From: Naegleria gruberi
Taxonomy: Eukaryota
Length of the DNA: 64,000 bases
NCBI GenBank assembly: GCA_000004985.1
Contig: GG738866.1
Strand: one strand, 5' to 3'
Shown here: positions 1,617 to 38,441 of the stretch, piece by piece
Position numbering within the stretch: the stretch's first letter is position 1
How the letters are laid out: each line of letters opens with the position of its first letter
Translations under genes and position numbers: made by a program
Notes under the pieces: model-generated
Told to the model about the DNA's origin: nothing
Databases searched by the model: none
Seen by the model: only the letters and a program-made list of their open reading frames with translations

Positions 1617-4600
1617 ATGCTCACAAGCCCTAGAGAAGAATTTGCAGACTCGGGTGATGAAGATGATAAGGACGTTATCGATCAATTTAAAAAGCTGATA
1701 CGGCTTTCTAGGAATTCAAAACAAAATCATAGGAATTTTGCAAAAACTGAAATATCAAACAATATGAATTTTGGAAAGAATAACACTACAAGTGAAAAGG
1801 AAGAAAAAGTCAGTGGTATAGCTAATATGGTGATGAAACGGTTAATGATGGGAAAGTTTGTTACACAAGTCAGGCCTCATTTTCTCTCTGCTGTTCTATA
1901 TTCCGATGAGAGTAGAGAGGACGATTGTTCATCAGTAGCCAATGTATTGTACTCTCGACTCGTTGATTCAATTTCAAAAACTTCTAGGTCGCAAACCATT
2001 GTTCTTAATGGAAAAACAACAAGAAAGAGAGTGAAAACAACATTAACCTTGTTGAACCTTTTATTAGGAGCAAAAGGTAGTGCATCTATTGCTTCCGAAC
2101 AGCTTTCGTTATTTTACAGATTTGGTTCAACTAGTTTGGAACATGGAGAGTACTTGAAACCACTCTTTGCTTTCAATATTGGAATTACATTCAAAACTGA
2201 AAAGGGTTCGTCACAACTATCAGCTCTCGATTTTGATGTGGCTGCTTCTCTTTTCAATAGGTTTGAGATTGAATATTTACTTGAGAAGAAGAGTCCTTAC
2301 CAAACAGCTGTTCAATGTATTGTAGAAAGAATTGAAATATTCAAAGACTTGTTGTGTGCACCTTCAAAAATGTTAGAACCTCTGCTGGGCCAAACTTTTG
2401 TTGAATTGAAATATTTCGCTTTCATTAATAACTTGAAAAAGGAGGTACCAATGTCAGAGTCTAGGTTTTATGATTTTCTCAAGAATATTAAGAGGGCTCT
2501 TTTGTGTTCAACAAGAGAGATTAATACTCTTCTAAGAACGTTATCCATCATACTGCTATTATTGGATTTGGAAGATAACACATCATCTGATGCTTTCAAT
2601 GAGGCTATAAAGTCTGAAATAGAAAGCCATTTGGAAACATTTGACTCTGAGTTACTGGGTCAAATATGTGAAATATTACACATGGAACAATTTGAAGTAT
2701 TGAAAAGTGTTGGAATGATGATAGACAATAAGAGAGAAGAGCTAGGATTTGCGTTTACCAAGTGCACTAGTTTTGTTTGTATTTTGGTTGAATCACTATT
2801 CAGATGGATAGGACAAAAATGTAAAAAAGCATCAAAAGATTTTGTAAATAGTATTGAAATTGATGAGAATCTTGAATGCGAAAATATAGCAGCAGTTCAC
2901 ATTATAAGTTTCCCAGAATTGTCAGCAGAAAAGAACATCATTTATTCCTTTGGAGATTTATGGTGTAATGCCAGTTCTGAGCACGCCTACTCTTGGGCTT
3001 TACAATTTTTGGTAGAGGATATTTCAACAACCCATACAAAGGAAGGATTTGTGACTGATCCTCTTATTGATATTTTAGAAGGTTCTTCAAGCAGAGAAAT
3101 TATTGACTTTTTGTTTGGGAATACTGGTTTATTGTGTTCCTATCCTTCTCTTTCAGATACATCAACTTACCACGACAGAAAGGATGCTATAGATAAGGTT
3201 ATTTTCTTCTTCCGTAATAATTCATATTATGGACTAAGCAGTGTAAATATGGATCAAAATGATGGAAATCACTACATGATTAACCATTCATTTGGAAAAT
3301 TCAAATATGAAGTTGGTTCATTCTTTCCAAAATATATCAATGAAGATGTCCAGCACCAAATATTGAAGGCTGGAATACCAAGTGTTGAAATATCTGATCT
3401 ACACAAGGATTTCCTTCATTCAATGAAGAGTTTATTCTCACCGACTGCCTTGAACTCGGATCCGACTTTTGTAACCTTTTTCCATTTGAAAACCAATACA
3501 TCAACTAATGATTTAATGCAACAAATGATTAATAGCCAAGTTATGACAGTCTCTGATGTATGTGAAAAGTCCTTTGATGTTACTCTTTCGAAGAAATCAT
3601 TCTGGAAAGTTTTTCATCCACTTTCATACAAAAAGTTTTCAAAAGATACCGCTCTTGACCTGGCAGTTTCAAAGATACTTCTCCACTCTATTGGATTTCA
3701 AAAGAGTGGTCAAACACAATTTTATTTTATTGGCAAATCCTCAGTTATGCTTAAAAGAGATACTTACGAAACATTGAGAGCGCACGTTTTTGATGTTATG
3801 AATGAAGCTGCAACAGTTATTCAAAAGTTGTGGAGGCGCTATAAGTTGAAAAAGAAATTGAGGGAATCTATTAAGGAGGCTATTGAAAACAACAGGAAAG
3901 AAATTAAAAAGAAGCCCTCTCCTCAAAAAATTGAAATACCAAATGAAGAAGTGCTGTTTTCAAAGCCAAAGATGGCTGTCAGCACCACTCCTCTAAGCGA
4001 AAAGAAGAAGAAACTTCAAAAGTCATATGCTTATGGATTAGTAAAAAGAAAAGAGGCAATTAAAAAGAGAGCCGCTTCTCCAATGAAGAAACCAAAGCCA
4101 CAAAAGGTAGAAAAGGTGGATATCGACACTCAGGTATCTGTAATTCAAGCATTAATTCGTGGTAAATTGGCAACCAGACATATGTCTAAAAAAGTTGACC
4201 TTAGTTTAAAGATCCAAAGATTGTACAGAGAAAAGAAGAGGAATGATATTGAAAGAGAAATAAGAAAAAGAAAGATTAATGTGATAAAAAAGAGAAACGA
4301 GCAAAAGAAACATGAGATTGAAAAATTGAATGTTGCCGCTAGGAAGATTCAACAAGCATGGGTCAACTATAAGGAAAATTATTTTCAAAAACAACTAATT
4401 GAGGCAGTGATCATAATTCAAAGGGCTTGGAGAGCTTACAAGTTGAAAAGGTCATTGAAAATTCTTCTAAAGATAAGACGAGATGGAGAGAGAAGGAAGA
4501 AAGAATATGAAGAAAGGGAAAGAAGACTGAAAGATAAAGAGATGCAAGTTGTAAGAGAAACCAAAGAATTGGAATATCAAAAACATATACTTGAAGAAAA

Positions 4601-5303
4601 GGAGAAGCTTTTTGTGAAACAGCACATTGTAGATAAAAAGCTGAAGGAAAAGGAAGAGCAGGTATGGAATTCATTACAAGAAATCAGCAATAGTCTGATT
4701 CATTCAAATAGAACTCAACTACCATTAAGCAGCCCTCCTCAACCACCTTCGAAAATTAGCAATCTTCCACTGCTACCTTCAAGTCAGCCAAAAAGACAGT
4801 TGGATGATTCATCAAAAGTTGCAACTAAAATGAGAGAATCATCAGTGAGAACAAAAACCAATATCACAAACGTGTCTAATAACTCAGAAGATAACTCGAG
4901 TTCTAACAAGAAAATTTCATATGCAGACCTGCTAAAAGAAGCCTATGGATCAGCATTCGAATCGAAAATTAAACCAAAACCTCCTTCTCTGAAAAAGGTC
5001 AACAAGACAGAATCAGAAATTGACAAATCAAAGATTGCATCTCCAAGAAAAGTCACTACCAATTCCCAAAACAAGAGTACCATTATTACAAATATTCCAA
5101 CAAGCAGAGTAGTTCCAAAACAACCAATACTTGAGCGTCAAACCCTTAATACTTCAAAATATCACCCTAGTACCATAATAGTTCCAGAAAAAGCAATGAA
5201 ACAGATGATTGAACGTAATGAAAAGAAGTCCAAGAAACCTAATGAAACGTGGAATCAATGGAATTTGCTTGTTCAGGAATTATCTAACGAATTTAATCCC
5301 TAA
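1617..5303 (+). CDS. Myosin-like protein with degenerate motor-domain motifs, three to four IQ motifs, an E/R/K-rich helix and an S/T/P/K-rich tail (1228 aa)
   Basis: The N-terminal ~730 aa are collinear with a myosin head, but the signature motifs are degenerate. SSVANVLYSRLVDSI...QTIVLNGKTTRKRVKTTLTLLNLL replaces PHIFAIAD..AYR...[24 protein letters not shown] (P-loop). SLFNRFEIEYLLEKKSPY..ERIEIFKDLL replaces NSSRFGKFIEI..YLLEKSRV..ERNYHIFYQLL (switch I). LFRWIGQK...SIEIDENLE replaces LFLWLVKKIN...LDIAGFE (switch II). The converter-like TQFYFIGKSSVMLKRDTYETLRAHV is followed by the IQ motifs IQKLWRRYKLKKK, IQALIRGKLATRH and IQRAWRAYKLKR, then an E/R/K-rich stretch (RDGERRKKEYEERERRLKDKEMQ...). 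The myosin consensus was recalled from memory. Confidence 0.75.
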   Translation: MLTSPREEFADSGDEDDKDVIDQFKKLIRLSRNSKQNHRNFAKTEISNNMNFGKNNTTSEKEEKVSGIANMVMKRLMMGKFVTQVRPHFLSAVLYSDESREDDCSSVANVLYSRLVDSISKTSRSQTIVLNGKTTRKRVKTTLTLLNLLLGAKGSASIASEQLSLFYRFGSTSLEHGEYLKPLFAFNIGITFKTEKGSSQLSALDFDVAASLFNRFEIEYLLEKKSPYQTAVQCIVERIEIFKDLLCAPSKMLEPLLGQTFVELKYFAFINNLKKEVPMSESRFYDFLKNIKRALLCSTREINTLLRTLSIILLLLDLEDNTSSDAFNEAIKSEIESHLETFDSELLGQICEILHMEQFEVLKSVGMMIDNKREELGFAFTKCTSFVCILVESLFRWIGQKCKKASKDFVNSIEIDENLECENIAAVHIISFPELSAEKNIIYSFGDLWCNASSEHAYSWALQFLVEDISTTHTKEGFVTDPLIDILEGSSSREIIDFLFGNTGLLCSYPSLSDTSTYHDRKDAIDKVIFFFRNNSYYGLSSVNMDQNDGNHYMINHSFGKFKYEVGSFFPKYINEDVQHQILKAGIPSVEISDLHKDFLHSMKSLFSPTALNSDPTFVTFFHLKTNTSTNDLMQQMINSQVMTVSDVCEKSFDVTLSKKSFWKVFHPLSYKKFSKDTALDLAVSKILLHSIGFQKSGQTQFYFIGKSSVMLKRDTYETLRAHVFDVMNEAATVIQKLWRRYKLKKKLRESIKEAIENNRKEIKKKPSPQKIEIPNEEVLFSKPKMAVSTTPLSEKKKKLQKSYAYGLVKRKEAIKKRAASPMKKPKPQKVEKVDIDTQVSVIQALIRGKLATRHMSKKVDLSLKIQRLYREKKRNDIEREIRKRKINVIKKRNEQKKHEIEKLNVAARKIQQAWVNYKENYFQKQLIEAVIIIQRAWRAYKLKRSLKILLKIRRDGERRKKEYEERERRLKDKEMQVVRETKELEYQKHILEEKEKLFVKQHIVDKKLKEKEEQVWNSLQEISNSLIHSNRTQLPLSSPPQPPSKISNLPLLPSSQPKRQLDDSSKVATKMRESSVRTKTNITNVSNNSEDNSSSNKKISYADLLKEAYGSAFESKIKPKPPSLKKVNKTESEIDKSKIASPRKVTTNSQNKSTIITNIPTSRVVPKQPILERQTLNTSKYHPSTIIVPEKAMKQMIERNEKKSKKPNETWNQWNLLVQELSNEFNP

Positions 5304-5371: not shown

Positions 5372-8300
5372 ATGTCGGAGGAAACACCTGTGGAACAACA
5401 AATATCCTCCAATATTGATGATGATCATCATCAGGTGGAAAATACTACCACTAGCATCACTGAGGATACCAACAATGATACATCGACTGTTAATGAACAA
5501 ACAGAAGATGAAACAACAAATATTGTCGAACAAACCTCCGAAGAATCAAAGCAGGAAGAAACAACAATTGAAGAAAATACATCAATAGAAGAAAAACAAT
5601 CTGTTGAATGTAATAACAATGACGATACTATTATTCAACCAACAACAGAAGAATCTACAAAGGTAGAAGAACAAGTAACTTCTCCAACGAGTGAGACCAA
5701 TTTTGATAATGGTGATTGGTTGGATGGTGATTCTTTTGCCACAACCGATGATCATCAACAAGAAACATTGTATAATAACGATCAATCTTCTACTGAAAAT
5801 AGCACACTGCCCGAACAAACAAATCTAGTGAGTGATAGTGTTATTTCTGCTCAATCAACAGATGAACAACAAGAAGCAACAACAACAAACACTGAGGAAC
5901 CAATAGTTGAAGAACAATCATCCGAAAAAGTAATTCCTAATACTTCATCACAGGAAGATTTTGGAGATTATTCAGAGGATGCTTCAGAAGCAATAGTTAT
6001 TGGAGAGACAATGCACGAACACAATTCATCCCAAGATGTAAATAATCAAGTGGAAATACCTTTGGAAGAATCTGTACAAACCAATGAGTCCAACACCTTG
6101 GAAAGTACAAACAAAGTAGAACATTCCGATAGTGTTGTTGAAGAGACTAATAACGAAAATTCAGATGAGGGATTTGCAAATAATGATGATTTTGGTGATT
6201 TCCCAAGCACAGCAACAGCAACCATGGAAACACCAACTATTGAGGAGCCATCAACAATAGTGGAATCTACATCTCAAGAGGGTAGCAACCAAACTTCTAC
6301 TGAGGATAATCTTAATTCGTCTGAACAACCTGCCGAAGATCAACTTGAGGAATCAACCAATCCATCAGAAGAAGGTAATAAGCCAGAAACAACTGTAGAA
6401 ACTGAATTCTCCTCCGTCCAAGAGGAGATGAAGTTTGCAAATGATGAAGATTTTGGAGATTTCCCAACATCGACCGAGGTGGAAACATCCCAACCTGCAC
6501 ATATTAATGAAACAACTGAACCAGTCAGAGAATTTGCAGAAGATGAAGATTTTGGAGATGTTCCAGTATCTACTGTGGTGGAAACATCCCAATCTACACT
6601 CGTAAAGGAAACAATCTCTGAACCTGTACCGGTTCAAGAATTAGCCAAGGATGAAGATTTCCCAACATCTACAGAGGAAACAGCCCAAAAAGAAGAGCAT
6701 GTTAATGACACGAATGAAAAAATAGAATCTGTTGATTCAACAGGCCAAGAAATTGAAATTGTTCAACCAACCACACAAGTTACTGGGTTTGACGATAATG
6801 ATAATTTTGGTGAATTCCCAGAGGTTGCTGAAAATACTCATAAGGTAAAAGGGTTTGGTGATGACGATGATTTTGGCGAATTCCCAACAGAACAACCAAG
6901 TGCACACACTGAAACTGTTATACAGCCAGCAACACAAGAGGAGAAGTTTGTAAATGATGAAGATTTTGGAGATTTCCCTCAACCTACACTCACAAATGAA
7001 ACAATTTCTGAACTAGAATTTGCCAAGGATGAAGATTTTGGAGATTTCCCAACATCAACTGAGGAAACAACCCACGTAAATGAAACAAGTTCTGAACCAG
7101 TTCAAGAATTTGCTCAAGGTGAGGATTTCGGAGATTTCCCAACATCTACTGAGGAAACATCCCACGTAAATGAATCTACTAACCCACCAACAGATGAAAC
7201 AAATGGTGGATTTGCAGAGGATGATGATTTTGGTGATTTTGCTCCAGCAGTTGAATCGACTGAGGCTAATGCAGAGGATGATTTTGGTGATTTTGCTGAA
7301 CCTACAACAGATTCTACTACAGAACAACCAACAACTACAGCAGATCATAATGAAGAAGACTTTGGAGATTTCAATGAGCCTACCCAAGAATCTACTAAGG
7401 AAGATGAAGACGATTTCGGTGGATTTGGGGAAGCAAAGGAGGAGGAAGAAGAACCTGTTGCTAAACCAGTTGAGATCAATTATGCAGATCTTCTTAAGGA
7501 TCAAAAACATGTTATTGATTCTATTCTTTCAATTGACCAGATCAAAAACGAGGACGAATTTTCCAAAGTTAAACAATCTGTTCACAATTTAGTTAGTATG
7601 CTTATACCAACTGAACTTGCAGGAAATCCAGAGAGAACTGACATTACTGGAGAATCTGGAAATACTCTAGAAAAACTATTCAATATGAATTCCAATCACA
7701 ATGCAGATATTTTAAGCAAAATGTCTGTTTGGCAAAATAGTTGTGTGGAAAAACACTTTTTACTCTCACTAGGAATGGAAAAAAAGAAGAATAAGAAGCT
7801 TAACAAACCACTCAGAAAAGCACTTCACAGAAGAACAGCTTCCACAACCTACTCGACACCAATTTCTGGAGATACCCCTCAAAAACCAAAGATTGATACT
7901 CCAAATGTAGATCAAAGAATGAAGATTGATGAAATTGGTAACATTTCTCAAAGAATGCTAGGAGCAAGACATAGAAGAGTTGGTTCCACTGTGACTGACC
8001 TTCATCTTTCTCCAAGAACTGTTCCATTAGGTGTAAACACAATGGAACAGGCTGTTTCACCAACCGCTACAAGTCCACTCCCAACTACTCCTGTATCTAC
8101 CAATAAGTTTACTGGAAACGTTCCATCACCAAGTTTATCGGCTCAACACACTGATGATCTCATCAATTCTTACACTCCATCTATCAATACGCCTTCCTCA
8201 AGTAAGCCAAAGAATGCTGAATTGGATGATATTGCAGCTTTAGTATTTGGTTCTGGATTTGCCTCTCCAACAAAGGAGATACCAAAGACAGAAGTCAAGG

Positions 8301-10228
8301 TTGCAACCAGTACCATCAAAATTACAACCACTTCTGCCTCGCCTTCAGGTGTTGCTCCTCAATCATCAACTGCATCTCAAAAACCTTCTGCTAGTAACAA
8401 TGGTTTTGATAACGATGACTGGGGAAGAATCATTCCAAACATTTCCACAAATACCAATGATGTTAAACCTGTTAAGCTAGATTCACCTGGTTTTGAAAAC
8501 GACACCAAACAATCTGCTACTATTTCCCAACAACCAAAGCCATCTCTATCACCTGTTAAAAAAGAAAGTGTTGTTTCTGCCAACGACGATTTTGGTGACT
8601 TCCCAGAACCAAAGTCAACAAAAGAAGAAACTGAATGGTCAAGTAATGATTCATGGGATGCACCTCCTCAAACATCTCCAAAAGCTACTTCAACAACTGA
8701 CTCTTGGTCTACACCTGAGCCAAAGGAGGTTTCAAATGATTCTTGGGGAGATGACAACAAGTGGACTGAACAATCATGGGAACCTTCACCACCAAAAGCA
8801 ACAGAAACTAAATCAGAAGTGCCAGTCAAGAAGATTGAATCTTCTGTTGTCTCAGCTAGTGAAGATGATTTTGGAGATTTCCCAGAACCAAAAGATCATG
8901 ACCCACAACAACACGATTCTTGGGGAAATACCCAAAATAATTCATGGGAAAGTTCTAGCAATAATTGGGCATCAAATAATGATTCATGGGGAACTTCTCA
9001 AAATGACTCCTGGACAACCCAAGTTGACTCTTTCAAACCTGAGCCAACCTCTTGGGAAAGCTCGTCCATAAGCAATACTAACAATGCTGCCAGCTCAACA
9101 CCATCATTTACTGATCAAGGTTTTGCCAATGATGATTTTGGAGATTTCCCAGTTGTAAAGGAGGATTCAAAGCCTCAAGCAGATTCTTGGGAAACTCAAA
9201 TACCAACCACTATTGAACCAGTCCAAACACCAGAAGCTTCAGTTCCAACTCCATCGTTCCAAACTACATCTCAACCTAATAGTGGATTTGACGACTTCCC
9301 AAAACAACAAGACGAGCAAGGTTTTGGTAACGATGATGATTTTGGAGATTTTCCAGAGCCACAAGACCATTCCCTTAAACAAAATGACAACGATGATTTT
9401 GGTGATTTCCCAGAGCCTCAAGATCACAAACCACAAGATGATTCATGGGGAAGCAACATTCAACCTGTCTCTAACAACGACTCTTGGCTTTCAGCTATTC
9501 CTACAAATGTACAAACTTCTGTTAAACCTGCTCAATTAGGAGGGTTCGATGATTGGTTGTCTCCTGCAACAGTTTCAACTCCACCTGCACAATCAACAGG
9601 TACACCGCTAAGTACCCCTCAACCAATTTCAGATGATTGGCTTTCAGGATCCATTTCTACTCCAACAGTTCCTCAGTCTCAACAAACAACTCAACCTACT
9701 GTAGTTGCTGATGATTGGCTCTCAGGATCTAGCTCTACAACAGCTCTTCCCCAAACTCAACCTGTTGGTGATGATTGGCTTTCTGGCTCCATTTCCACTC
9801 CAACAACACAATCATGGTCAACTGCTGCTGTTGCATCAACTGTTGAAACAACTGAGGATGATAGCTTTGGAGATTTCCCAGAACCAAAGGATCACGAACC
9901 AAACCATCAAGATAACGATGACGATTTTGGTGATTTCCCAGAACCTCAAGATCATGTACCAAAACAAACATTTTCCAATGATGGATTTGATACTTTCCCA
10001 GTTTCACAAAATATTATTATTCCTCCTGTTCAAACAAAGCCAATTGGTGGATTTGACGATTGGTTATCTACTCCAACCTCTCAATCAACAGGGTTTTCCT
10101 CCCAACCAACTTCCCAACCTGTAATTTCTGATGATTGGCTCTCCACTACCACCAGTGCTACTACTTCTCAACCATCTACAAATAATACTGCTGCTGGTAA
10201 ACCAAATGATCTTTTTGAATTTTTCTAA
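5372..10228 (+). CDS. Large acidic, low-complexity protein (1618 aa) with about 20 DFGDF(P) motifs, multiple DDWLS and DSWG motifs and a short non-repetitive central island
   Basis: A single ORF starts only 68 bp after the previous stop. Recurrent (D/E)(D/E)DFGDFP peptides lie between positions 6180 and 9950. DDWLS(G/T) repeats lie between 9535 and 10140. Composition is D/E/T/S/P/Q-rich. Confidence 0.8.
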   Translation: MSEETPVEQQISSNIDDDHHQVENTTTSITEDTNNDTSTVNEQTEDETTNIVEQTSEESKQEETTIEENTSIEEKQSVECNNNDDTIIQPTTEESTKVEEQVTSPTSETNFDNGDWLDGDSFATTDDHQQETLYNNDQSSTENSTLPEQTNLVSDSVISAQSTDEQQEATTTNTEEPIVEEQSSEKVIPNTSSQEDFGDYSEDASEAIVIGETMHEHNSSQDVNNQVEIPLEESVQTNESNTLESTNKVEHSDSVVEETNNENSDEGFANNDDFGDFPSTATATMETPTIEEPSTIVESTSQEGSNQTSTEDNLNSSEQPAEDQLEESTNPSEEGNKPETTVETEFSSVQEEMKFANDEDFGDFPTSTEVETSQPAHINETTEPVREFAEDEDFGDVPVSTVVETSQSTLVKETISEPVPVQELAKDEDFPTSTEETAQKEEHVNDTNEKIESVDSTGQEIEIVQPTTQVTGFDDNDNFGEFPEVAENTHKVKGFGDDDDFGEFPTEQPSAHTETVIQPATQEEKFVNDEDFGDFPQPTLTNETISELEFAKDEDFGDFPTSTEETTHVNETSSEPVQEFAQGEDFGDFPTSTEETSHVNESTNPPTDETNGGFAEDDDFGDFAPAVESTEANAEDDFGDFAEPTTDSTTEQPTTTADHNEEDFGDFNEPTQESTKEDEDDFGGFGEAKEEEEEPVAKPVEINYADLLKDQKHVIDSILSIDQIKNEDEFSKVKQSVHNLVSMLIPTELAGNPERTDITGESGNTLEKLFNMNSNHNADILSKMSVWQNSCVEKHFLLSLGMEKKKNKKLNKPLRKALHRRTASTTYSTPISGDTPQKPKIDTPNVDQRMKIDEIGNISQRMLGARHRRVGSTVTDLHLSPRTVPLGVNTMEQAVSPTATSPLPTTPVSTNKFTGNVPSPSLSAQHTDDLINSYTPSINTPSSSKPKNAELDDIAALVFGSGFASPTKEIPKTEVKVATSTIKITTTSASPSGVAPQSSTASQKPSASNNGFDNDDWGRIIPNISTNTNDVKPVKLDSPGFENDTKQSATISQQPKPSLSPVKKESVVSANDDFGDFPEPKSTKEETEWSSNDSWDAPPQTSPKATSTTDSWSTPEPKEVSNDSWGDDNKWTEQSWEPSPPKATETKSEVPVKKIESSVVSASEDDFGDFPEPKDHDPQQHDSWGNTQNNSWESSSNNWASNNDSWGTSQNDSWTTQVDSFKPEPTSWESSSISNTNNAASSTPSFTDQGFANDDFGDFPVVKEDSKPQADSWETQIPTTIEPVQTPEASVPTPSFQTTSQPNSGFDDFPKQQDEQGFGNDDDFGDFPEPQDHSLKQNDNDDFGDFPEPQDHKPQDDSWGSNIQPVSNNDSWLSAIPTNVQTSVKPAQLGGFDDWLSPATVSTPPAQSTGTPLSTPQPISDDWLSGSISTPTVPQSQQTTQPTVVADDWLSGSSSTTALPQTQPVGDDWLSGSISTPTTQSWSTAAVASTVETTEDDSFGDFPEPKDHEPNHQDNDDDFGDFPEPQDHVPKQTFSNDGFDTFPVSQNIIIPPVQTKPIGGFDDWLSTPTSQSTGFSSQPTSQPVISDDWLSTTTSATTSQPSTNNTAAGKPNDLFEFF

Positions 10229-10357: not shown

Positions 10358-13300
10358 ATGTCTGCTCTTAGCCACATCCTTAACACCCTCACCCTCCTCA
10401 TCACAATACTTCTGCTCACATCTCTATCACTCGGAGCCAAACAGCCATACATTCTTCCATACTGTGCCAAACTAACAGTAGAACCTTACAATGTGAAAAT
10501 TGCTACAGCTTCCACAACCATAACTTTCAAATCGACATCTGATCTGTGGTTCTTTCTCGACTCTTCATACTTTGCCCTTATTCCAAACAATACAGATCAT
10601 GGCAAGTTTGCTGACTTTGCTCGTTATTGTGTCTATTTGATGGACACTTCAACTTCCTACACTTATTTACCAGCTGTGAATAGTATGAATTTGACGAGTA
10701 CTAAAACTTTCACAGCCACATTTACCAGTTTACCAAATAACAAGAGACTCTCACTGTCAATGTCAAGTTGTTTCTTTACATTATACAGAGAGAGTGAATA
10801 TCATCAAGAGCTTGTGCCAATTCCACCAATTAGTATCTACAATTATGCAACTGGTACTGGAACTGTTTCATCTTTTGCTCCGACCTATGATTATGATTCA
10901 TACTATGCCAAGTATTGTCTTAATAAGGCAACGAATGATTCAAGATATTCAGCAGAGACTTTCACCAGCACAACTTCAACATCAACTGTAGCCAGTTCTT
11001 TATCTTTGATATCGGAAAGCACTTTTGCAAAAACATATTCCAATTCTGGACTATCTATTTCTGGTAAATGGAAAACAGACTCGTTCTCTTCGCAAATTAA
11101 TTCATTCACCTATTCCAATTACAATTATCAACTCTTCAATCCAATCAATATGAATTTCAAGAAAAATGCAACTTTTATCAAGTATCCTCTCAAATGGAAA
11201 CGTCACATTAATGTGGCATCTGAGTCTGTCAGTTTCACAGTGCCATCAGATACTTCCATCACAAAGAGATGTGCAGATCCTCAAGAATTACAAGATTTAC
11301 TCGACACCTGCATTTCTACCAATCAAATTTTTAAGGTAAATGATGTAGAAGGAGGAACTCCATGGCATTATGGAGCTAATCCTTCATCTCCAGCTGAGGT
11401 TTCAGATGTCAACATTTTAATAACCTATTCTTATTACGAAGCTATTTTCTATTCAGGACTGGCTCTTCCTTATTTGAGAGCTCTCATAGTTAATGGAACT
11501 TTGACAATTGCAAGAACTGACATTTCAAATTCATATTTTTATTGTGCAAAGAATACTTTGAGAAACCAATTCCAATATTGGGATTCCACAGTTTATCACT
11601 TTATCAAGTTTAGTACTATTCATAACATGTATTCATTTGATTCAAGTAGGAAGAGTTATGATTTGAATACAATGGCAGGAATTGGCATTGGATCTCAAAA
11701 TATTCAATTGACTAATTTCGAAAATCAAAATGCAAAGAGTGAGAATGGAGTTTCTTTGCAGATTAGTGATACTTCACTGGATGATACATTCTATTCTCAA
11801 ACAAGAGTTGTTCCAATCTATCAATATAACGAAACAATCAATTCAGTTTTTGATTTGACATTTATTTATGATTCTGAGCTTGGATCCAAGACAGGTGGTG
11901 CTTTGGTGACACAGGAAGATTTTGTGACAACTTATAAATCAACTGCTTGTGCTGAAAAGTATGGTTCCAGACTTGATACTCAATTGAGCAATTTCTTTAC
12001 GTCAAGTGCTTATACTTTTATTAGAATTCCAGAGTTTGCCAATAGACTAAACTATTCCAAGTCTATTTCCTATAATATAACATCAAACTCTATACAAATG
12101 AATTATCTAAACACTGAGCAAGCCGTTCAGTTCAGTTTACTAGTAGATTCTTCATTATTAGTTTACAAAGAGGCAAGAATTTCACTTGCAGATTATTCCT
12201 TCTTTGTAACACCAAATAGACAAGAATGGAATGAAATGAATGCTACCTTGAATGTAAATATAACAAATAGTGGAGAAATTAAAGGAACTTTTCAAGTGAC
12301 AGCAACTTGTGGTTCACCAATCACAGTTAAGGAAGCTAATGTCAAGACTGCTGACATTGAAAATGGAAAATCAACTTTGATTCAATTTGGAGTGACCAAT
12401 TCAGAATGGAAATCATATAAGGATTTACTAAATGTTTCCTGTTTGGTAAATGTTAAAATTATTAAGGAAGAATTATGGACCAGTACGAATAAGGAAATTA
12501 CTATATATGAAACTATTGTTTTGGATCATGGTTACTTTGTACCATATTGCGAACAAAAATATAACGAGCCATTTATTGAATTTTCTGAGAGCCATTTGAA
12601 TCAATCCAAATTTACAAGAATTTCGAATACGTTTTACAATTCTATTCTATTCGCAGTGAAAAGCAATACAACAGATCAAATTTCTGCCAGATACAGTATA
12701 TCAGTCATCCCAACAGACGATAACCCATTTATTCTTTCAAATTCTTCAATACTGACCTTTGAATTAATACCTCAACAAGAAACAACTCTGAATTTGGAAA
12801 TTGTGGGAATTGACTTTGAGAAAATCATGAAAGAACGAATTAATCTGAGCAATTATACCTTCCAAATCACAATCCAGAATATGGATACAGCTGACTGTTG
12901 GTCCGATTATGGAAAATCCATCATCCAACCATTCACGTTCCATGTCGAATATTTGTGTCCAGACAATTTCGTAGGAGTTTTGTGTGATATTCCAGTATGT
13001 TATGGATACAATGCCACAGATATGGAGAACGTATGCTATGGACATGGGTCATGTCTAGCACCAGATACTTGTTCCTGCTTGAATGGTTATACTGCAGATA
13101 ATTGCTCTATACCTATTTGTTTTGATTACAATTCGACTGATGTCAGAGTGTGCTCATCACACGGTGAATGTTTATCACCAGATAATTGTCAATGTTCAAA
13201 TGAATGGACTGGTGATGAGTGTAGTATTCCAATATGTTTTGGAATTCCAGCAAATATTGAATCCACTTGTTATGGTCATGGTAACTGTTCTAATCCAGAT

Positions 13301-16300
13301 ACGTGTCAATGTATTTCAGGATATACATCATCTAATTGTTCAATTCCAGTTTGTTTTGGATTTAATGCTTCAGATATTTCAAATGTTTGTTCAAATCATG
13401 GACAATGTGTTTCACCTGATAACTGCCAATGCGAAAATGGTTATACTGGACTTAATTGCTCAATTCCAATTTGTTTTGGTAAGCATTTACTCATGAATGA
13501 ATCAGGTTTGATCTGCTCAACTCATGGTCATTGTGTGGATACAGACATTTGTCTTTGTTTTGATGGATATTATGGTCCACAATGTGAACTACATAATTGC
13601 TTCAATGTCCCGTTCAACGATTCAAACGTATGTTATGGACATGGTAATTGTACAGAACCAGACCAATGCCAATGTCAAGATGGCTACACTTCATCAAATT
13701 GCTCAATTCCAATTTGTTATAGTTATAATGCATCTGATATTTCAAATGTCTGTTCTACACATGGCAAATGTACTGAACCTGATGTGTGTGCATGTGATAG
13801 TGGGTACACTTCTTTGAACTGTTCAATTCCAATTTGTTTTGGAATTCATTTAGCAATGAATGAATCAATGTTAATTTGTTCATCACATGGTTATTGCGTT
13901 GAACCAGATACATGCATTTGCGAGAATGGATATTATGGAGCAATGTGTGAAATGCATAATTGCTTTGGTGTGAAATTTAATGACTCCACTGTATGTTATG
14001 GACACGGAAATTGCTCACAACCAGATTCCTGTGTTTGCTCAGATGGTTATACATCTGATAATTGCTCAATTCCAATTTGTTTTAACATCACAGCTTCAAA
14101 TTCACAAGTTTGTTCATCACACGGTGAATGTTTATCACCAGATAATTGTCAATGTTCAAAAGAATGGACTGGTGATGAGTGTAGTATTCCAATTTGTTTT
14201 GGAATTCCAGCAATTAATGAAACTGTTTGTTATGGACATGGTAATTGTTCTAATCCAGATACGTGTCAATGTAAATCAGGATATACTTCATCGAATTGTT
14301 CAATTCCTCTTTGTTATGGATTTAATGCTTCAGATATTTCAAATGTTTGTTCAAATCATGGACAATGCCTTGCTCCTGACACTTGCCAATGCGAAAATGG
14401 ATATACTGGACTTAATTGCTCAATTCCAATTTGTTTTGGTAAGCATTTACTCATGAATGAATNNNNNNNNNNNNNNNNNNNNNNNNNNNNNNNNNNNNNN
14501 NNNNNNNNNNNNCATTCCAATTTGTTTTGGAATTCCTGCAACCAACGAATCTGTTTGTTATGGACACGGCAACTGTACCTATCCAGACTATTGTACATGT
14601 AAGCATGGTTTCACATCTAGCTACTGCTTCATGCCAATGTGCTATGGATACAACGCCTCAGATGCTCAAGTTTGCTCTTCACATGGCCAATGCATCTATC
14701 CAGAGTTGTGTAAATGCTCAACTGGGTATACCTCAGAAAATTGTTCAATTCCTATTTGTTTTGGCGTTCATATCTTGATGAATGAAACAGCTCCCTGTTC
14801 CTCACATGGCCATTGTGTTGCTCATGACATTTGTCAATGTTATGACGGATATTATGGAGATAATTGTGAAATACATAATTGTTATGGAGTACCATTCAAT
14901 GATTCTGCAATGACTTGTTATGGCCATGGTAATTGTTCATCTCCAGATATTTGTCTTTGTGAAGAAGGTTATGTTTCGGATAATTGTTCGTTACCAGTTT
15001 GTTTTGGGCTCAATTCTTCTGATTCTAATGTTTGTTCTTCTCATGGACAGTGTATTAAGCCCAATGAATGTGAATGTTCGGTTTATTTTACAGGATTGCT
15101 TTGTGATATTCCAATATGTTTTGGAATTCCAGCAAGTAATGAATCTACTTGTTATGGACATGGTAATTGTTCTAATCCAGATACGTGTCAATGTATTTCA
15201 GGATATACTTCGGATAATTGTTCAATTCCAGTTTGTTTTGGATTTAATGCTTCAGATATTTCAAATGTTTGTTCAAATCATGGACAATGTATTTCACCTG
15301 ATAACTGCCAATGCGAAAATGGATATACTGGACTTAATTGCTCAATTCCAATTTGTTTTGGAAAACATTTACTCATGAATGAATCAGATTTGATATGCTC
15401 AACTCATGGACAGTGTGTGGATACAGACACTTGTCTTTGTGGTGATGGATATTATGGTCCACAATGTGAACTCCATGATTGTTTCCAAGTGCAATTCAAC
15501 GATTCAAACGTATGTTATGGACACGGTAATTGTACACATCCAAACCAATGCCAATGTCAATATGGTTACACTTCATCCAATTGCTCAATTCCAATTTGTT
15601 ATAGTTATAATGCATCTGATATTTCAAGTGTTTGTTCTGCACATGGTCAATGTATTGAACCTGATTTATGTGAATGTCTAAATGGTTACACTTCTTTGAA
15701 CTGTTCAATTCCAATTTGTTTTGGAATTCATTTAGAAATGAATGAGTCAATGTCAATTTGTTCATCACATGGTTATTGCGTTGGGCCAGATACATGCATT
15801 TGTGAGAATGGATATTATGGAGCAATGTGTGAATTGCACAGTTGTTTTGGTGTGAAATTTAATGACTCCACTGTATGTTATGGACATGGAAATTGTTCAC
15901 AACCAGATTCCTGTGTTTGCTCAGATGGTTATACATCTGATAATTGCTCAATTCCAATTTGTTTCAACATCACAGCTTCAAATTCACAAGTTTGTTCATC
16001 ACACGGTGAATGTTTATCACCAGATAATTGTCAATGTTCAAATGAATGGACTGGTGATGAGTGTAGTATTCCAATTTGTTTTGGAATTCCAGCAAGTAAT
16101 GAAACTGTTTGTTATGGACATGGTAATTGTTCATATCCAGATACGTGTCAATGTAAATCAGGATATACTTCATCGAAATGTTCAATTCCTATTTGTTTTG
16201 GATTTAATGCTTCAGATATTTCAAATGTTTGTTCAAATCATGGACAATGCCTTGCTCCTGACATTTGCCAATGCGAAAATGGTTATACTGGATTTAATTG

Positions 16301-19300
16301 CTCAATTCCAATATGTTTTGGAAAACATTTACTCATGAATGAATCAGATTTGATCTGTTCATCCCATGGTGGGTGTATTTCACCTGATACATGTCTATGC
16401 GATAATGGATTTTATGGCCCACAATGTGATTTATTCGATTGTTTTGGAATACAATATAATGATTCGAATACTTGTTATGGAAATGGTAAATGCATTTCAC
16501 CAAATTTGTGCGAATGTTACGATGGATGGACATTTACAAATTGCTCCATTCCTTTATGTTATAATTTAACAGCCTCTGATACGAATGTTTGTTCTTCACA
16601 TGGAAATTGTCTGAAACCTAACGAATGCCAATGTCACGAAGGATTTACATTTGAAAATTGTTCAATTCCAATTTGTTTTAACGTGAACGCATCAGATTCT
16701 AATATTTGCAGTGGACATGGTACATGTATCTCTCCAAATAATTGTTCATGTGAAGAGAATTATTTTAATGCCAATTGTGAAGAAACTACTTGTTTTGGAC
16801 TTGTTTCTAATAGTTTACAAAGTTGTGGTGGATTTGGTAATTGTACAGCATTTGATATTTGTGAATGTGACTCGAAACATGTTGGAGAAAACTGTTCCAT
16901 TACTTTTTGTTTCGGATTACTTTCTAACAATTCGAACAATGTTTGCTCGGGCAAAGGTCAATGTTTAGAATACGACCACTGTAACTGTTCACAAGGTTAC
17001 TATGGAGAATCATGCGACTTATTCGATTGTTTCGACATGCCAAAAAATTCTTCACTTGTCTGTTCAGGAAAAGGTAAATGTTTAGATTCGAATATTTGTA
17101 AATGCGGTATAGGATTTTATGGAGATTATTGTCAAGATTTTGATTGTTTTGGAATTCACAAAGATGATCCAAATGTCTGTTCTAGAGTTTCTCCATGTAC
17201 TTCTCCCAATAATTGCTCCTGTCCAGCTGGATATTACGGAGCTAGTTGTGAACTATTCAATTGCTTTGAAATTCAAAGCAACTCCTCTAAAGTTTGTTCT
17301 GAACATGGGAAATGTCACTTGCCAAATAATTGTTCTTGTGAAGAAGGATATTTTGGGAGAGATTGTTCAGAATTTGAATGTAATTTCATTCACAAAAATA
17401 ATGAAACTGTTTGCAGCTCAAATGGAAAATGTCACTCACCAAATAATTGTTCATGTTTTGATCATTATTATGGAGAAGATTGCGAATTATTTAATTGTTT
17501 TGGGAAAGCATTCAATTCTTCACTGGTTTGCTCTGGAAATGGCCAATGCCTCGATTACAATAATTGTAAATGTAATATATCATTTTTAGGTGTGGAATGC
17601 CAAGATTTTACCTGCCATGGATTACATTTTAATGATTCGAATGTTTGCAGTGGAAATGGAAGCTGTTTATCTTTGGATAATTGCACATGTTTTGATGGAT
17701 TTACTGGGAGTGATTGTGAAATTAATATTCCAGATCCAATTATTGAGAGAAATGAAACTAATAACCAAACTGAAACAACAAATTCAACTCTATTTAGTAA
17801 TCAAACAAGTAGTGATGATAATTCTACCCTGTTTGATAATTCCACTTTGATTAATGGAAATAATCAAACTGAAATGTCTAATTCAACTTTAGAAAGCAAT
17901 CAAACTGTTGTTATTGAAAACTCAACACTACCATTAACGAATCAAACCCTTAATTCATCTTCCATAAATGGAAATCAAACTGAGGTATCAAATTCAACAG
18001 CACTCACAAGTAACCAAACTAATGTTATTGATAATTCTACTTCTTCTGAAAATTCAACATTATCAGCCACCAATCAAACTTTGAATTCCACTTCTGTAAA
18101 TATTAATAACCAAACCGAAACTAATTCTACTGATTCCAATAATTCCACTCTAGAGTCGTGTTCTCAACATGACGGTATACAATGTTCTGGTAATGGATTT
18201 TGCAATCATTCTGAATGTATTTGTGAAAATGGTTACCACGGAACCGATTGCAATCTATTCGAATGTTTTGGAATCAATTCGACTAATTCTCAAGTCTGTT
18301 CTGGTAATGGCCAGTGTGAATCTCCTAATTTATGTGCCTGTAAAGAAGGATATCTATCACCCAATTGTTCCTCATTCACTTGCTTTTCCAAACTAAACTC
18401 AGAACCATTAGTTTGCTCTGGACACGGATATTGCCAAGATCTAAACTCGTGCCAATGTGATTCTGGTTTCTATGGCCCTCAATGTGACCTTATCAAATGC
18501 TTCTCCGTCCTCTCCAATGAATCATCAACAGTTTGTCAAGGTCGTGGAAATTGCACAAATCCTGACACATGTCAATGTGAAACGGGATATCACGGTCCAG
18601 AATGTAACATTCCAGTATGTTTTGGCAATTACAATGAAAATTCAACAAGTGTTTGTAATGGAAATGGTCAATGTTTTGCAAAGGATACATGTCAATGTAA
18701 TGAAGGATATCTTGGTGAAGAATGTCATTTGACAGTCTGTAACAAAACTTCATGTGTTTATGGTGTTTGTGAAAGTGCTTTGAATTGTAAATGTAATGTT
18801 GGATATGGAGGAAAAAATTGTGAGCAAGTCATTTGTTTTGGTCATTTGGCATCTGACATTAATGTTTGTAAGGGAAATGGATATTGCATAGCTCCTGACA
18901 AGTGTAATTGTTCAAGTTTGAAATATAGTGGAAAGGAATGTCAATTCGAACAAGATTCTGATGAGCAATGCTCCATTTATGGAGATTTAACAATTTTTAA
19001 TTCTAATTGGATGAGTGAAAGTTTGAAAATTGGTTTGAGTGGAAAATTGAATCAAACTTTGAGGTCAACTATCAAATATTCTCCTAATTTATTTTCAATG
19101 AATAGTTTCAAATATCTAATCAAGATTCAAAATAACGGAATTAGAAGTTTCGAATATTCTATTCGATCATATTGTGAAAATGGAAATTCTTTCAAGAGTT
19201 TAGGAAAGATGGTTAACTCTATTGAAAGCTCTAAATCATTAACTCAATACGAAAGTATCCAAATTGAAAATGATGCTTTTGGATTTGCATTCTATTCTCT

Positions 19301-20696
19301 TGACGAAAGATTTGAAAATATCGAATGCAATATCGAACTGAGTATGAAACCTCTAGATAGAAAAGACAATTGTTTGGTTTATGATTCTATTCATGATCCT
19401 ACTTCTTCATATAACTACAAAATATTGATGATATTTGAGAATGTTGATTCTTGCCTCTTTATGAAAGAAAATGAAAATGGTCTAGTTGACTTGACCATTC
19501 AAAATTCAGTCCTATCAAGCCTCACAAATCAATCTTCTGAATTATACAATTATGAAACCAATTCTACAGAAAGCTATCTTAAAATTCTTTCCATTTTCCC
19601 ACAGAAGCGTAATAATTGGCAAATAATCCAGTCAACCAATGACAACAACACAACAACCTCAACATCTGCATCTCTGTTAATCACAGCTCAATTAATCAAT
19701 CCAGAAAATCTCTACGGTATATTCATTCCTGCTCTATACTGCCAGGACGACAGTATTTCAAGTGGGGACTCCTTTACAACAAGTTCTAGCTCTCTAACTC
19801 TTTATCATGAAATGTCAAAATTAGTTTTCCAATTCAACATTACAATTCAAAACATTTCACAAGATTTGATTGATTATGGAAGAGTCAGAGGTGGTAAGGA
19901 AGGCACAGCATCCATTAATATCGATTCCATGAACCTTAATTGTTCATTACTACTCATACCATCACCTGCCAAATGTTGGACATCAAAAATTGATAACCAA
20001 TCCAAACGTTCTCTTCCACAACCTTCTACTCAACTCCAACTCTACCTCCAATCACTCAAAAAACTAATATGTCACTTTACCCTGCCAATTGTCTCTGGCG
20101 AATTTAAATTCATCCAAAGTGTCAGATCATTCGAAATTGCCCTAACCTATACTTGTATGACTCTTGGATTCGCCTCAATGATTTGCACAACCAAAGGTCC
20201 AAGAGATCGTAAACACTCCCTACTACAGTTAGTAGATTTCGTAAAACAAACTAGACGAAACAAGCTCGAACAAGATGAACAAGACGAAACTCATTCCACC
20301 CATGAAACAGAGAAAAATTTACCTTACTGCGACAATTGTGGGCATAAAACCTTGAAAAAGGCGAAATTTGAGATTAGCTTTGATGGTCAACAATCAGAAA
20401 GTGAAATTGGATTTTTCGTGTGCGAACAGCAAGAATGTTTTGAAGCATTGTGTTCGTTATACAATGAAAATTATAGTGAATATTTCACATGTTATGATTG
20501 TAGATCTGGTCAATTGGTGAAATTCCCGCCATTTTTGATGGTGGGTGTGGATTGTGTTGATGATTTGCCTGCTGGTGCAGAATCACAAATTTTGTTGAAT
20601 GCCTTTGATGCTGATGAATATGGAGATCTTGATGAAGAAACAGTAGACGAAACATTTGATACAGTGTTATTGGATTCGAATACTAGTAGATCTTGA
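10358..20696 (+). CDS. EGF-like repeat transmembrane protein, about 3440 aa or more. It has a signal peptide, an ~870-aa N-terminal domain, more than 45 tandem CFG-type EGF-like modules, an N-glycosylation-sequon linker, further EGF modules, a C-terminal domain, one transmembrane segment and a Cys-rich cytoplasmic tail. The CDS is interrupted by an assembly gap.
   Basis: The N-terminus MSALSHILNTLTLLITILLLTSLSLGA is a signal peptide. Six-Cys units of ~38 aa end in ...GYTS.NCSIPICFG. A hydrophobic segment IALTYTCMTLGFASMICTT lies near 20150. The two ORF-track ORFs (10358-14602 and 14457-20696) are the same gene on either side of the 50-N run; the frame changes across the gap because the gap length is arbitrary. 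Confidence 0.8.
12960..17730 (+). repeat. Tandem coding repeat array (EGF-like modules), including at least four copies of a ~960-bp super-repeat
   Basis: The string tgaatggactggtgatgagtgtagtattccaat recurs at 13201, 14161 and 16041. ttttggaattccagcaa... recurs at 13241, 14201, 15121 and 16081. Spacing is 960 bp, apart from the copy across the gap. Confidence 0.8.
14463..14512. other. Assembly gap (50 N) inside the EGF-repeat array
   Basis: The sequence shows a run of exactly 50 n characters. Near-identical repeat DNA flanks it on both sides. Confidence 0.95.
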
Positions 20697-29800: not shown

Positions 29801-30133
29801 CCAAAGCAATTGGATGAATTCTATCAATATGCCAAATCTGAAATGCAAAAAATTAACAAGGCCCAAGAAAAATTGGAAAAGATTTTGAAAGAGGTTGCCA
29901 AATTCTTTGGCGAAAAGGAGAAGGATGTCTGCGATACTCCTCACTTATTCTTCACTGCTGTTTCAAACTTCTTGAAACAACTCGACGCTACTTTTACCAA
30001 GCTCAAGGAAGAAAAGGAAAAGAACAAGGATGACCAATTAAGAAAAGAATTGAAGAACTTTTTGCAGAATAGAAGACCAGAAGGAAACATGACCATTCTC
30101 TCAGCAGTAGCTAACGGTGATATTAAACAATAA
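26853..30133 (+). CDS. Formin, exon 2 (GBD/FH3, FH1, FH2); spliced protein about 1399 aa
   Basis: The 50-bp intron (26803-26852) ends in ttattag. Splicing is in frame (phase 1) into ...EIEYVKKNWSLK.... The FH1 region carries (I/V)PPPPG(M/S)G repeated eight times at 28590-28810. The FH2 signature is LVNFLNK...VYGFKLNFLTKLGDIKSSSDPNRSMMNYLCEFL. The ORF-track start at 26864 is GTG, not a real start. Confidence 0.8.
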
Positions 30134-35595: not shown

Positions 35596-36957
35596 TTAAA
35601 AGAAGGAAATGGATGGGATATCATAGCAAACTCTAGAGGCAATTGAGCATTGGGAAGAAACAGTAGCAGAACCTGTTATAGCCAACAGTGAATCTACAAA
35701 GAATTGTTTGGCATGAGCAATATTATCAAATAATCTCGAATAGGTCTGTCCAGTATTACCCACTTGTCCAAATCTTGCATAGACTGTGAAAATGTTATCA
35801 TTTAGAGCATTGTTTTGAAGTTGAAGCATGAGGAATTTGTTATCATTTCCACAATTAATAAGAGCATTGAATGTACAAGATGAACGATCTTCATAGGTTT
35901 CTCTATAAATTCTTCCACCAATCCTCATAATAGTACAATATGGATCAGTCACTAGACTATATCGTGAATTATTAGTAACAATTAATGATGATGAAGAGGA
36001 AGTATTTTGAAGAAGGGAGAGTTTTTGCAATTTGCCCAAAAGAACACTACTTTCATCTAATACCAACTCTTCCCTATTGCCTGTGGACAATAAATCAAGC
36101 CAAGGACATTGATGAGTAGAGTGGTCATCATAGCAAACTGTTGTATTGTTATATGGAACGGAAGATTCTATAACATTACTCAAAAGGAAGGCAGAATTGC
36201 TGACAAAATTGATGGGAATGTTTTGATAGATTGGATTGGTCTTAGTTCTCTTAGTGTGTTGTTTGATTTGTTGTTCGTACAGTGTTGGTGAAGGATGATC
36301 CTTACGCTTTCTTCTCTGAAAATTGTTGACTTTGGAGCAATAATTGAGAGAAAAGTCTTTGAGTGGAATGGTCAAAGATGAAGATGAACAACTCTGAGTA
36401 AAGATTGGTTGATGGATAAGTGGTTGTTGTTGATGTTGAGGAAGTGTTAGGAGAGGTGTATCAAAGATGTGGTCTAATTCTTCGAGGAGAGCATTTGGTG
36501 ATGAAGGATCCATAACATGTTGATTTTCTGCACTTGTTGTTGCAACAGAATTACTAATGGTACTGGTTGTTGTTGTTGATGGTGTTGTATCAATTTGCTC
36601 TATCAACTTGCTATCTTCACTTTCAGTGGTACTTGTTGTTGGATGTACTTGCTCTAATTCTCGTACCAATTCTTCAACTTTATCCGCATCATCAGTTGTA
36701 TCAACTTCTTTTGTTTGGTTATTCTTACTCACTGCACCATCAACATCTTCAGTATTGTTGCCATTTGTTGTTGTCGTTGAAGTAGTAGGTTCATCAATTA
36801 CTGTTGTTGTTATTGGTGGTGGAGCAATACTATCTTGTTGAATCAAGTCCAAACCCTCAACCTCCAGAAATTCCTCTTCTTCTTCTTCCTCTACAGGAGA
36901 TGAGGGTATGATCAGAGAGGACTCATCGGCAATCTTAGTGTCGACGTGTTCTGGCAT
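35596..36957 (-). CDS. Acidic, Thr/Ser-rich protein (453 aa) with a C-terminal WGR-like domain
   Basis: ATG at 36957. The C-terminal NKFLMLQLQNNALNDNIFTVYARFGQVGNTGQTYSRLFDNIAHAKQFFVDSLLAITG aligns with the WGR domain pattern (Y.LQL...W.RWGRVG..GQ......A...F...F..KTG). The consensus was recalled from memory. Confidence 0.5.
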   Translation of the reverse strand: MPEHVDTKIADESSLIIPSSPVEEEEEEEFLEVEGLDLIQQDSIAPPPITTTVIDEPTTSTTTTNGNNTEDVDGAVSKNNQTKEVDTTDDADKVEELVRELEQVHPTTSTTESEDSKLIEQIDTTPSTTTTSTISNSVATTSAENQHVMDPSSPNALLEELDHIFDTPLLTLPQHQQQPLIHQPIFTQSCSSSSLTIPLKDFSLNYCSKVNNFQRRKRKDHPSPTLYEQQIKQHTKRTKTNPIYQNIPINFVSNSAFLLSNVIESSVPYNNTTVCYDDHSTHQCPWLDLLSTGNREELVLDESSVLLGKLQKLSLLQNTSSSSSLIVTNNSRYSLVTDPYCTIMRIGGRIYRETYEDRSSCTFNALINCGNDNKFLMLQLQNNALNDNIFTVYARFGQVGNTGQTYSRLFDNIAHAKQFFVDSLLAITGSATVSSQCSIASRVCYDIPSISFF

Positions 36958-38399: not shown

Positions 38400-38441
38400 G
38401 TAAGTTGATAATTTGAATATATAATACTTATATTCTTTTAG

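Follow-up and report, generated by a model that had tools for sequence, protein, structure and literature searches.

The 64,000-nucleotide stretch of Naegleria gruberi DNA analysed here (the window; contig GG738866.1, assembly GCA_000004985.1) carries on its + strand, at 5372..10228, a complete single-exon coding sequence that starts with ATG and, according to the list of open reading frames (ORFs), encodes 1618 amino acids followed by a stop. Its product was found to be identical (100% identity over 100% of the length) to a "predicted protein [Naegleria gruberi]" deposited at NCBI (P0001), and this full-length match therefore supports the single-exon gene model; the P0001 record itself is unannotated and carries no Pfam annotation. 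A gap of 68 bp separates the gene from the upstream ORF, which ends at 5303. Both this spacing and the 1618-residue ORF had been described in a first-pass annotation made from the letters alone, and both were borne out. The reading favoured here is that the gene probably encodes a divergent cofactor of the aftiphilin/Laa2 type, that is, an accessory protein of the clathrin adaptor AP-1.

The encoded protein is strongly acidic, with 327 Asp plus Glu residues versus 83 Lys plus Arg. Ser, Thr, Glu, Asp and Pro prevail in its composition, which is also rich in Asn and Gln, and disorder was inferred from this composition together with the low confidence of the AlphaFold2 model, in agreement with the acidic, disordered protein initially described. 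No hydrophobic segment, signal-peptide-like N-terminus or transmembrane segment was seen in a Kyte-Doolittle scan of the 1618 residues (the highest 19-residue mean was 0.73), and the N-terminus is acidic, in line with the absence of a signal peptide already pointed out from the sequence. A secreted or membrane protein was ruled out on the basis of this lack of hydrophobic segments.

What is unusual in this protein is the extreme multivalency of its FGDF motifs, accompanied by a second array built of D[DS]W motifs. A motif scan detected 18 FG[DEG]F motifs, 14 of them DFGDF and 11 DFGDFP, versus the 0.03 expected by chance per composition-preserving shuffle. Near-variants were also present, namely one DFGDV, two FD[DT]F (FDDF and FDTF) and two FDDW. 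Six-frame translation of the whole window yielded 19 FG[DEG]F, 18 of which lie inside this gene, the only one outside being located in a non-coding frame. The count of about 20 DFGDF(P) motifs given at first is thus a fair estimate of the wider motif class, but the stricter pattern (D/E)(D/E)DFGDFP, which had been said to recur about 20 times, exists in only six copies. The motifs are grouped in two clusters (nt 6191-7426 and 8591-9937), matching the ranges originally proposed (6180-7420 and 8580-9950).

The first array (aa 271-686; 6182..7429, + strand) comprises 11 FG[DEG]F motifs and the DFGDV variant, all of them putative ligands of the AP-1 gamma ear, and most of its copies exhibit the extended form [GEK]F[AGV]x[DE][DE]DFG[DE]FP. 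The second array (aa 1072-1526; 8585..9949, + strand) contains seven FG[DE]F, the majority of which are extended to DDFGDFPEP[KQ]D[HE], and the FDDF at aa 1306; the FDTF is found just past it, at aa 1539. Peptides predicted as candidate gamma-ear ligands, of the acidic FxxPhi or Psi-G-[PDE]-Psi kind, include DDDFGDFPEPKD, NDDDFGDFPEPQD and EFAKDEDFGDFPTS. Upstream of both arrays, composition windows and the motif scan delimited an acidic, Ser/Thr/Glu/Asn-rich disordered N-terminal region (aa 1-270; 5372..6181, + strand), in which no FG[DEG]F was found and a single FGDY is present at aa 197; its conservation with respect to Naegleria fowleri is low.

An imperfect 99-bp tandem duplication (6434..6614, + strand; 1.8 copies, 80% match) was identified with Tandem Repeats Finder. 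It produced the adjacent motif copies DEDFGDFP and DEDFGDVP, the DFGDV of the latter being degenerate, and a third copy, KDEDFPTSTEE at aa 425-435, has apparently been deprived of its 'GDF'. The duplication and its decayed copies show an ongoing birth and decay of motifs. That the motifs arose when a DNA repeat expanded recently was ruled out, because this is the single duplication at the DNA level, codon usage differs between copies and the linkers have diverged; the motifs are therefore kept at the protein level and do not represent a young repeat.

A search with the whole protein matched only the protein itself and an orthologue of 1554 amino acids in N. fowleri, a lethal human pathogen (P0002, E 2e-92). 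The orthologue has 11 FG[DEG]F motifs, nine of the 18 in N. gruberi having a counterpart among them at the aligned position, and identity between the two species amounts to 48% in motif windows versus 23% in other disordered sequence. In the second array, six out of seven motifs are kept at the same position, and the C-terminal copies of both species have in common the extended form DDFG(D/E)FPEPKD. The last three motifs of the first array (aa 620, 638 and 664), situated directly upstream of the central island described below, have FGDF motifs of N. fowleri opposite them in the alignment, and they also align with a cluster of FGDF motifs that precedes the conserved core of more distant relatives and of aftiphilin. 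Conservation of the motifs in orthologues, on which the first-pass annotation had made its proposal depend, was thus found in N. fowleri and in other members of the family described below.

The most conserved part of the protein is a central island, which had been singled out from the start as nt 7440-7830 (aa ~690-820). Its helical portion (aa 698-810; 7463..7801, + strand), defined by conservation, HMMER and AlphaFold2, is a putative HEATR5-binding region, equivalent to the helical regions HR1-3 of known cofactors. The wider region aa 698-965 is 56% identical to N. fowleri, versus the 23% of other disordered sequence. The AlphaFold2 model of the island has a predicted local distance difference test score (pLDDT) of 49 and five helices, among them those at aa 704-719, 727-744, 765-771 and 774-799. 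A HMMER search with the island profile, covering 1.84 billion (1.84e9) representative proteins, matched only six others beyond the two Naegleria proteins: a Naegleria-like fragment (P0003), a hypothetical protein of the heterolobosean Acrasis kona (P0007, E 2.5e-5), and P0004 (E 8.6e-17), P0005 (E 2.5e-7), P0006 (E 1e-6) and P0008 (E 1.6e-4). A profile search with the seven-sequence island in a word-indexed database returned only three proteins, all already known, and sequence searches of the PDB with profiles A1 and A3 gave no match at E<=10. Pfam matches found on the heterolobosean relatives (Borrelia_P83, and ClpS with E 0.002-0.08) were dismissed as compositional, arising from low complexity.

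The members of this heterolobosean family have a common architecture that consists, in order, of an acidic N-terminal region with 2-4 (D/E)FG(D/E)F motifs, a helix QKxVIDSILS, a helix ending in IP or LPP, and a core, LExLFKxNxxHNxxxLxKMxxWxxSxIEKxFLxSIGxxK, followed by a basic stretch and an ELxxIAxLV(W/F) block. Members outside Naegleria additionally have an LPDLSFVV block and a terminal DDF(F/L/M). P0004, P0005 and P0007 each carry 2-4 (D/E)FG(D/E)F motifs shortly upstream of the same core. In N. gruberi, the core signature TLEKLFNMNSNHNADILSKMSVWQNSCVEKHFLLSLGMEKKK (aa 765-806; 7664..7789, + strand) is opposite the N-terminal half of the PF15045 'Clathrin_bdg' region of aftiphilin (LLDVWTELQDIHDAHGLRYQWGGSHSNKKLLCSLGIDTR) in the alignment. 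The conserved AELDDIAALVFGSGF block (aa 949-963; 8216..8260, + strand) corresponds to the family motif ELxxIAxLV[WF], whose E, L, L and V columns are invariant in the seven-sequence alignment A3, and hhalign placed it, weakly, opposite LSEEAAKVI of aftiphilin. The N-terminal part is missing from P0006 and P0008 because their gene models are truncated, that of P0006 (380 aa) starting inside the island. On its locus (L001, 543-4143), an ORF ending 10 bp upstream of P0006 encodes an acidic DDEFGDFDDF/DFGDFETT region and the first helix, and the real P0006 gene probably encodes about 1200 amino acids, with a short intron or a frameshift.

Reportedly, a consensus for gamma-ear ligand motifs was set out by Mattera et al. 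in 2004. The gamma-ear motif is described as an acidic FxxPhi (PMC10798858). In yeast, the HEATR5 protein Laa1 is connected to AP-1 by the cofactor Laa2, whose acidic FxxPhi motif binds the AP-1 gamma-ear and whose three short helical regions, HR1-3, bind HEATR5 (PMC10798858). Whereas HEATR5 is highly conserved, the cofactors that bind AP-1 are described as evolving fast, and clear homologues of aftiphilin are reported only from animals and those of Laa2 only from fungi (PMC10798858). For the comparison with these cofactors, a human aftiphilin query served only as bait, and the conclusions rest only on the real database proteins retrieved with it, the best of which was the aftiphilin of Elephantulus (P0009, 91% identity). 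The C-terminal regions of the aftiphilins were aligned (A4) and compared, profile against profile, with the heterolobosean family by means of hhalign. The best local match of the island was found on the aftiphilin core segment LLDVWTELQDIHDAHGLRYQWGGSHSNKKLLCSLGIDTR (score 23.6, P 0.013), a score that none of 499 column shuffles reached (maximum 21.5). This segment is located inside PF15045, which spans residues 57-125 of P0009, in a region overlapping HR2/HR3. A second, independent block was found at the C-terminus, (DDGFGDDQVEEFVST)LPDLSFVV versus (EEHLSEEALKVIAS)LPDLTFMH in aftiphilin (P 0.0018, reached by none of 497 shuffles); in the form LPDL[ST]F[MV], P0004-P0008 all possess this aftiphilin-aligned block. 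Over the full length, the two families were colinear along 358 columns, with a probability of 85%, an E value of 6.1e-6 and a score of 51.35. This score exceeded those of all column shuffles (maximum 25.3, n=120), of shuffles permuting the order of intact 25-column blocks (maximum 48.75, n=200) and of within-block shuffles in which regional composition is kept and motifs are destroyed (maximum 31.3, n=195).

Several results weigh against an aftiphilin/Laa2-type cofactor. The alignments are shallow (effective number of sequences about 2.2-2.7) and compositionally biased. The Naegleria pair compared with aftiphilin gave a P value of 6.7e-4 but a probability of only 27%, and the seven-sequence island with its FGDF flank one of 1.6e-4 but a probability of only 50%. 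A search with hmmsearch --max did not find the LPDLSF block in either Naegleria protein, and the pattern W..[FW].[DE], representing the WxxF-acidic ligands of the AP-2 alpha-ear, has no match in the N. gruberi protein. No Pfam model reached its gathering threshold for the Naegleria proteins or for P0003-P0008, and PF15045, with which genuine aftiphilins score 78-85 bits, was not matched by HMMER at E<=10 in the Naegleria proteins or at E<=1 in P0003-P0008. The single Pfam match of the N. gruberi protein, PF17104 (YBL010C/LAA2), is sub-threshold. It is shared with the N. fowleri orthologue, both proteins matching profile positions 2-141 with scores of 21.6, 22.9 and 23.6 bits against a cutoff of 24.7 (E 2.6e-4 to 6.6e-5), and other heterolobosean members have no match to it; two further Pfam matches of N. 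fowleri were far weaker (E 0.08-0.13) and were disregarded. Scans of fragments revealed that 14.6 of the ~23 bits come from the acidic FGDF segment and that the island helices alone give no PF17104 match. The value of this match as proof of Laa2 homology was accordingly downgraded, and, since most of the score stems from the FGDF segment, it was not relied on.

The shallow alignments, the lack of any Pfam match above threshold and the large share of the motif in the PF17104 score speak for the alternative that the protein is a lineage-specific disordered accessory protein of AP-1/clathrin, unrelated to aftiphilin and Laa2, whose gamma-ear motifs arose by convergence, as short linear motifs easily do, and whose island has a partner other than HEATR5. 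Against convergence, the heterolobosean family and aftiphilin have several blocks arranged in one and the same order, with a score above those of all shuffles, both the order-permuting and the composition-preserving ones, and the best local match coincides with precisely that part of PF15045 in which HR2/HR3 overlap it. This alternative is accordingly considered unlikely, and the protein is, in our judgement, probably a cytosolic, largely disordered and highly divergent representative of the HEATR5 cofactors typified by aftiphilin, Laa2 and CLBA1, a classification drawn from sequence comparison. It follows that the statement that no similar protein was recognisable no longer holds, as the island makes the protein aftiphilin/Laa2-like. 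The initial proposal of an AP-1 gamma-ear accessory protein receives, from this island family colinear with aftiphilin, a support that is computational and independent of the motif; the sub-threshold PF17104 match of both Naegleria orthologues points in the same direction. AlphaFold2 modelled the aftiphilin C-terminus as short helices embedded in disorder (pLDDT 47), like the Naegleria island, which agrees with the published account of HR1-3 (PMC10798858), and such short, low-confidence helices fit segments that would fold on the surface of HEATR5. With a pLDDT below 50, both models are too uncertain for a fold search to give meaningful matches.

The FGDF core is also that of peptides bound by G3BP, and multivalency is a trait of alphavirus nsP3 (PMC4967826), on which grounds the protein could be read as a scaffold whose FGDF motifs bind a G3BP-type NTF2-like domain and regulate stress-granule-like assemblies, as in nsP3, USP10 and ICP8 of herpes simplex virus. 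In G3BP ligands, (L/I)TFGDF, FNFGDF and YIFGDF, subsite 1 is filled by a hydrophobic residue at position -2 relative to the first Phe (PMC4967826). By contrast, a scan for [FYLIMV].FG[DES]F found a hydrophobic residue at position -2 in none of the 18 N. gruberi motifs and none of the 11 N. fowleri motifs, this position being occupied by Asp, Glu, Asn, Gly or Ser in Naegleria. Moreover, the island ties the protein to aftiphilin and to no G3BP partner, and aftiphilins carry the same acidic FGDF. This branch of the first-pass annotation is thus disfavoured, and a G3BP-type scaffold is regarded as very improbable.

The same annotation had proposed GAE domains of GGAs as possible receptors, a point that needs correction, since the GAE domains of GGAs reportedly occur in opisthokonts only (PMC3191125, PMC3473312). 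This leaves AP-1 gamma, rather than the GGAs, as the likely GAE-domain receptor of the FGDF motifs.

The C-terminal half of the protein contains a tryptophan motif array (aa 1015-1591; 8414..10144, + strand) in which D[DS]W recurs 16 times, six of these as DDWLS, and accounts for 23 of the 25 Trp residues of the protein. Motifs of the same class (DSW, DDW and GW) are found in N. fowleri. The D[DS]W motifs match none of the adaptor-ear regular expressions tried (DP[FW], WxxF-acidic and PWxxW). In composition, the array resembles GW/WG repeats, and Trp residues in a setting rich in Gly, Ser, Asp and Asn are reminiscent of the Argonaute hook. The 23 Trp residues in Gly/Ser/Asp/Asn-rich disorder (SWG, DSWG and NDSWGTSQNDSW; DDRWGNDNDSWD in N. 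fowleri) could thus be taken as a GW/WG-type platform for Argonaute or CCR4-NOT with incidental FGDF motifs, but this minor possibility leaves the conserved FGDF arrays and the aftiphilin-like core unexplained, and endocytic accessory proteins use acidic Trp motifs too, aftiphilin itself having DWNAFED and SWAAFGD.

Two further features are conserved. The protein ends in DLFEFF-COOH (aa 1613-1618; 10208..10225, + strand), identical in N. fowleri, and the C-termini of other family members (LDDFF, LDDFLM, FDDFLNM and FDDFMNS) conform to (L/F)DDF(F/L/M); from its sequence, DLFEFF-COOH may be a terminal docking motif, e.g., a clathrin motif of the DLF type. Downstream of the core, a basic Naegleria-specific insert (aa 811-895; 7802..8056, + strand) is invariant in N. 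gruberi, N. fowleri and P0003 and absent from P0004-P0008 in the alignment. It contains conserved RRxS/T-type sites (HRRTAS and ARHRRVGSTVTDLHLSPR), possibly regulatory phosphosites, and is predicted to form a short helix at aa 852-863 (RMKIDEIGNISQRM).

Taken as an aftiphilin/Laa2-type cofactor, the protein might work as follows. The short helices of the central island (aa ~700-810), which do not appear to fold alone, given the low AlphaFold2 confidence that they have in common with aftiphilin, would dock along the C-terminal region of Naegleria HEATR5 in the manner of HR1-3 of Laa2 and aftiphilin, if the homology holds. In the two flanking arms, each of the ~18-23 acidic FG(D/E)F motifs would bind the gamma ear (GAE) of AP-1, judging from their match to the published acidic FxxPhi motif, which is needed in Laa2 for AP-1 binding. 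A single molecule could then contact numerous AP-1 complexes and, by avidity, retain or gather them at membranes of the trans-Golgi network and endosomes. More speculatively, the D[DS]W array and the conserved DLFEFF might recruit a second partner, for instance another appendage domain or clathrin. In the Naegleria lineage the motifs have multiplied, N. gruberi having 18 and N. fowleri 11 compared with 2-4 in relatives, and the LPDLSF block at the C-terminus has disappeared. We tentatively raise the possibility, itself doubtful, that the Naegleria protein is a hyper-multivalent scaffold, with ~20 gamma-ear motifs, ~16 D[DS]W motifs and DLFEFF, that clusters or condenses AP-1 coats by avidity; such a scaffold would differ in coat organisation from the 1:1 bridging by Laa2.

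A search of the literature library retrieved no paper linking Naegleria with HEATR5 and nothing relevant on aftiphilin in protists. If the assignment is true, an aftiphilin-like family in Heterolobosea (Discoba) would push the cofactor module back towards the eukaryotic root, the FGDF ligand of the gamma-ear would be essentially the same from amoeboflagellates to humans, and the core positions L-E-x-L-F...H-N-A...W-x-x-S...K-x-F-L-x-S-L-G would help to find the cofactor in other lineages. The Naegleria protein is also a natural extreme in the multivalency of its motifs, on which coat assembly by avidity could be tested. The finding thus informs the evolution of the AP-1/HEATR5 machinery and motif multivalency, and current understanding is not overturned by it.

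As regards the genomic neighbourhood, the upstream neighbour (1617-5303, + strand) encodes 1228 aa, in which IQ calmodulin-binding motifs and a long, basic coiled stretch were recognised but neither a myosin head nor any further domain. Downstream, ORFs 10358-14602 and 14457-20696 (+ strand) encode a protein, secreted or membrane-bound, that bears 12 or more repeats of the teneurin/EGF_2 type (CSIPICFG...) and is broken by a 50-N assembly gap (14463-14512); the two ORFs may be one larger gene. ORFs 37292-38416 and 38525-39949 (+ strand) provide a Vps10-type receptor context 27 kb from the aftiphilin-like gene. Vps10-type receptors are classical AP-1/GGA cargo, and the co-location is probably coincidental. 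Other genes of the window encode a poly(ADP-ribose) glycohydrolase (19-1332, - strand), a diaphanous-type formin with GBD and FH2 domains (26864-30133, + strand) and a WGR-domain protein (35596-36957, - strand), none with an apparent functional link to the aftiphilin-like gene, as well as an EGF-bearing protein kinase of 2663 aa (46191-54182). At 54190-63034, the - strand contains four consecutive large ORFs (947, 1091, 468 and 466 aa) in adjacent, slightly overlapping frames, for which no Pfam match was found. A strong negative AT skew (-0.27 to -0.36) coincides with these four ORFs, which might all belong to a single very large gene, either as its exons or as parts separated by frameshifts.

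In comparison with known systems, the FGDF tetrapeptide is identical to that of alphavirus nsP3 and USP10, but all Naegleria copies lack the upstream hydrophobic anchor, are strongly acidic and belong to a different family of proteins. With epsinR, Ent3, Ent5, gamma-synergin, p56 and rabaptin-5, the Naegleria protein shares acidic FG[DEG]F-type motifs in disordered regions; however, none of these proteins has the aftiphilin-like core, and no ENTH, EH or coiled-coil domain was found by Pfam in the Naegleria protein. The resemblance to yeast Laa2 (YBL010C, PF17104) consists of an acidic FxxPhi motif followed by short helical regions, Laa2 being, in contrast, small and having one functional motif. 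With respect to aftiphilin (AFTPH, PF15045), a known gamma-ear-binding accessory protein that bridges AP-1 and HEATR5 proteins and is a partner of HEATR5B/p200 and gamma-synergin, the Naegleria protein is much larger (1618 aa), and identity in the core is about 28%, PF15045 being undetected by HMMER in it. Each retrieved aftiphilin fragment has one FG[DEG]F (one to four being usual) versus the 18 of N. gruberi, which has D[DS]W arrays instead of WxxF and a basic RRxS-rich insert and lacks LPDLSF. Nevertheless, the order of elements is common to both, with acidic (D/E)FG(D/E)F motifs, a helix ending in a hydrophobic residue and Pro, and the core L[DE]x3-4..H[DN]A..L..W..S...K.[FL]L.SLG[IM][DE]; the C-terminal LPDL[ST]F block is common to aftiphilin and the family members outside Naegleria, and in both proteins the short helices lie within disorder and are poorly folded alone.

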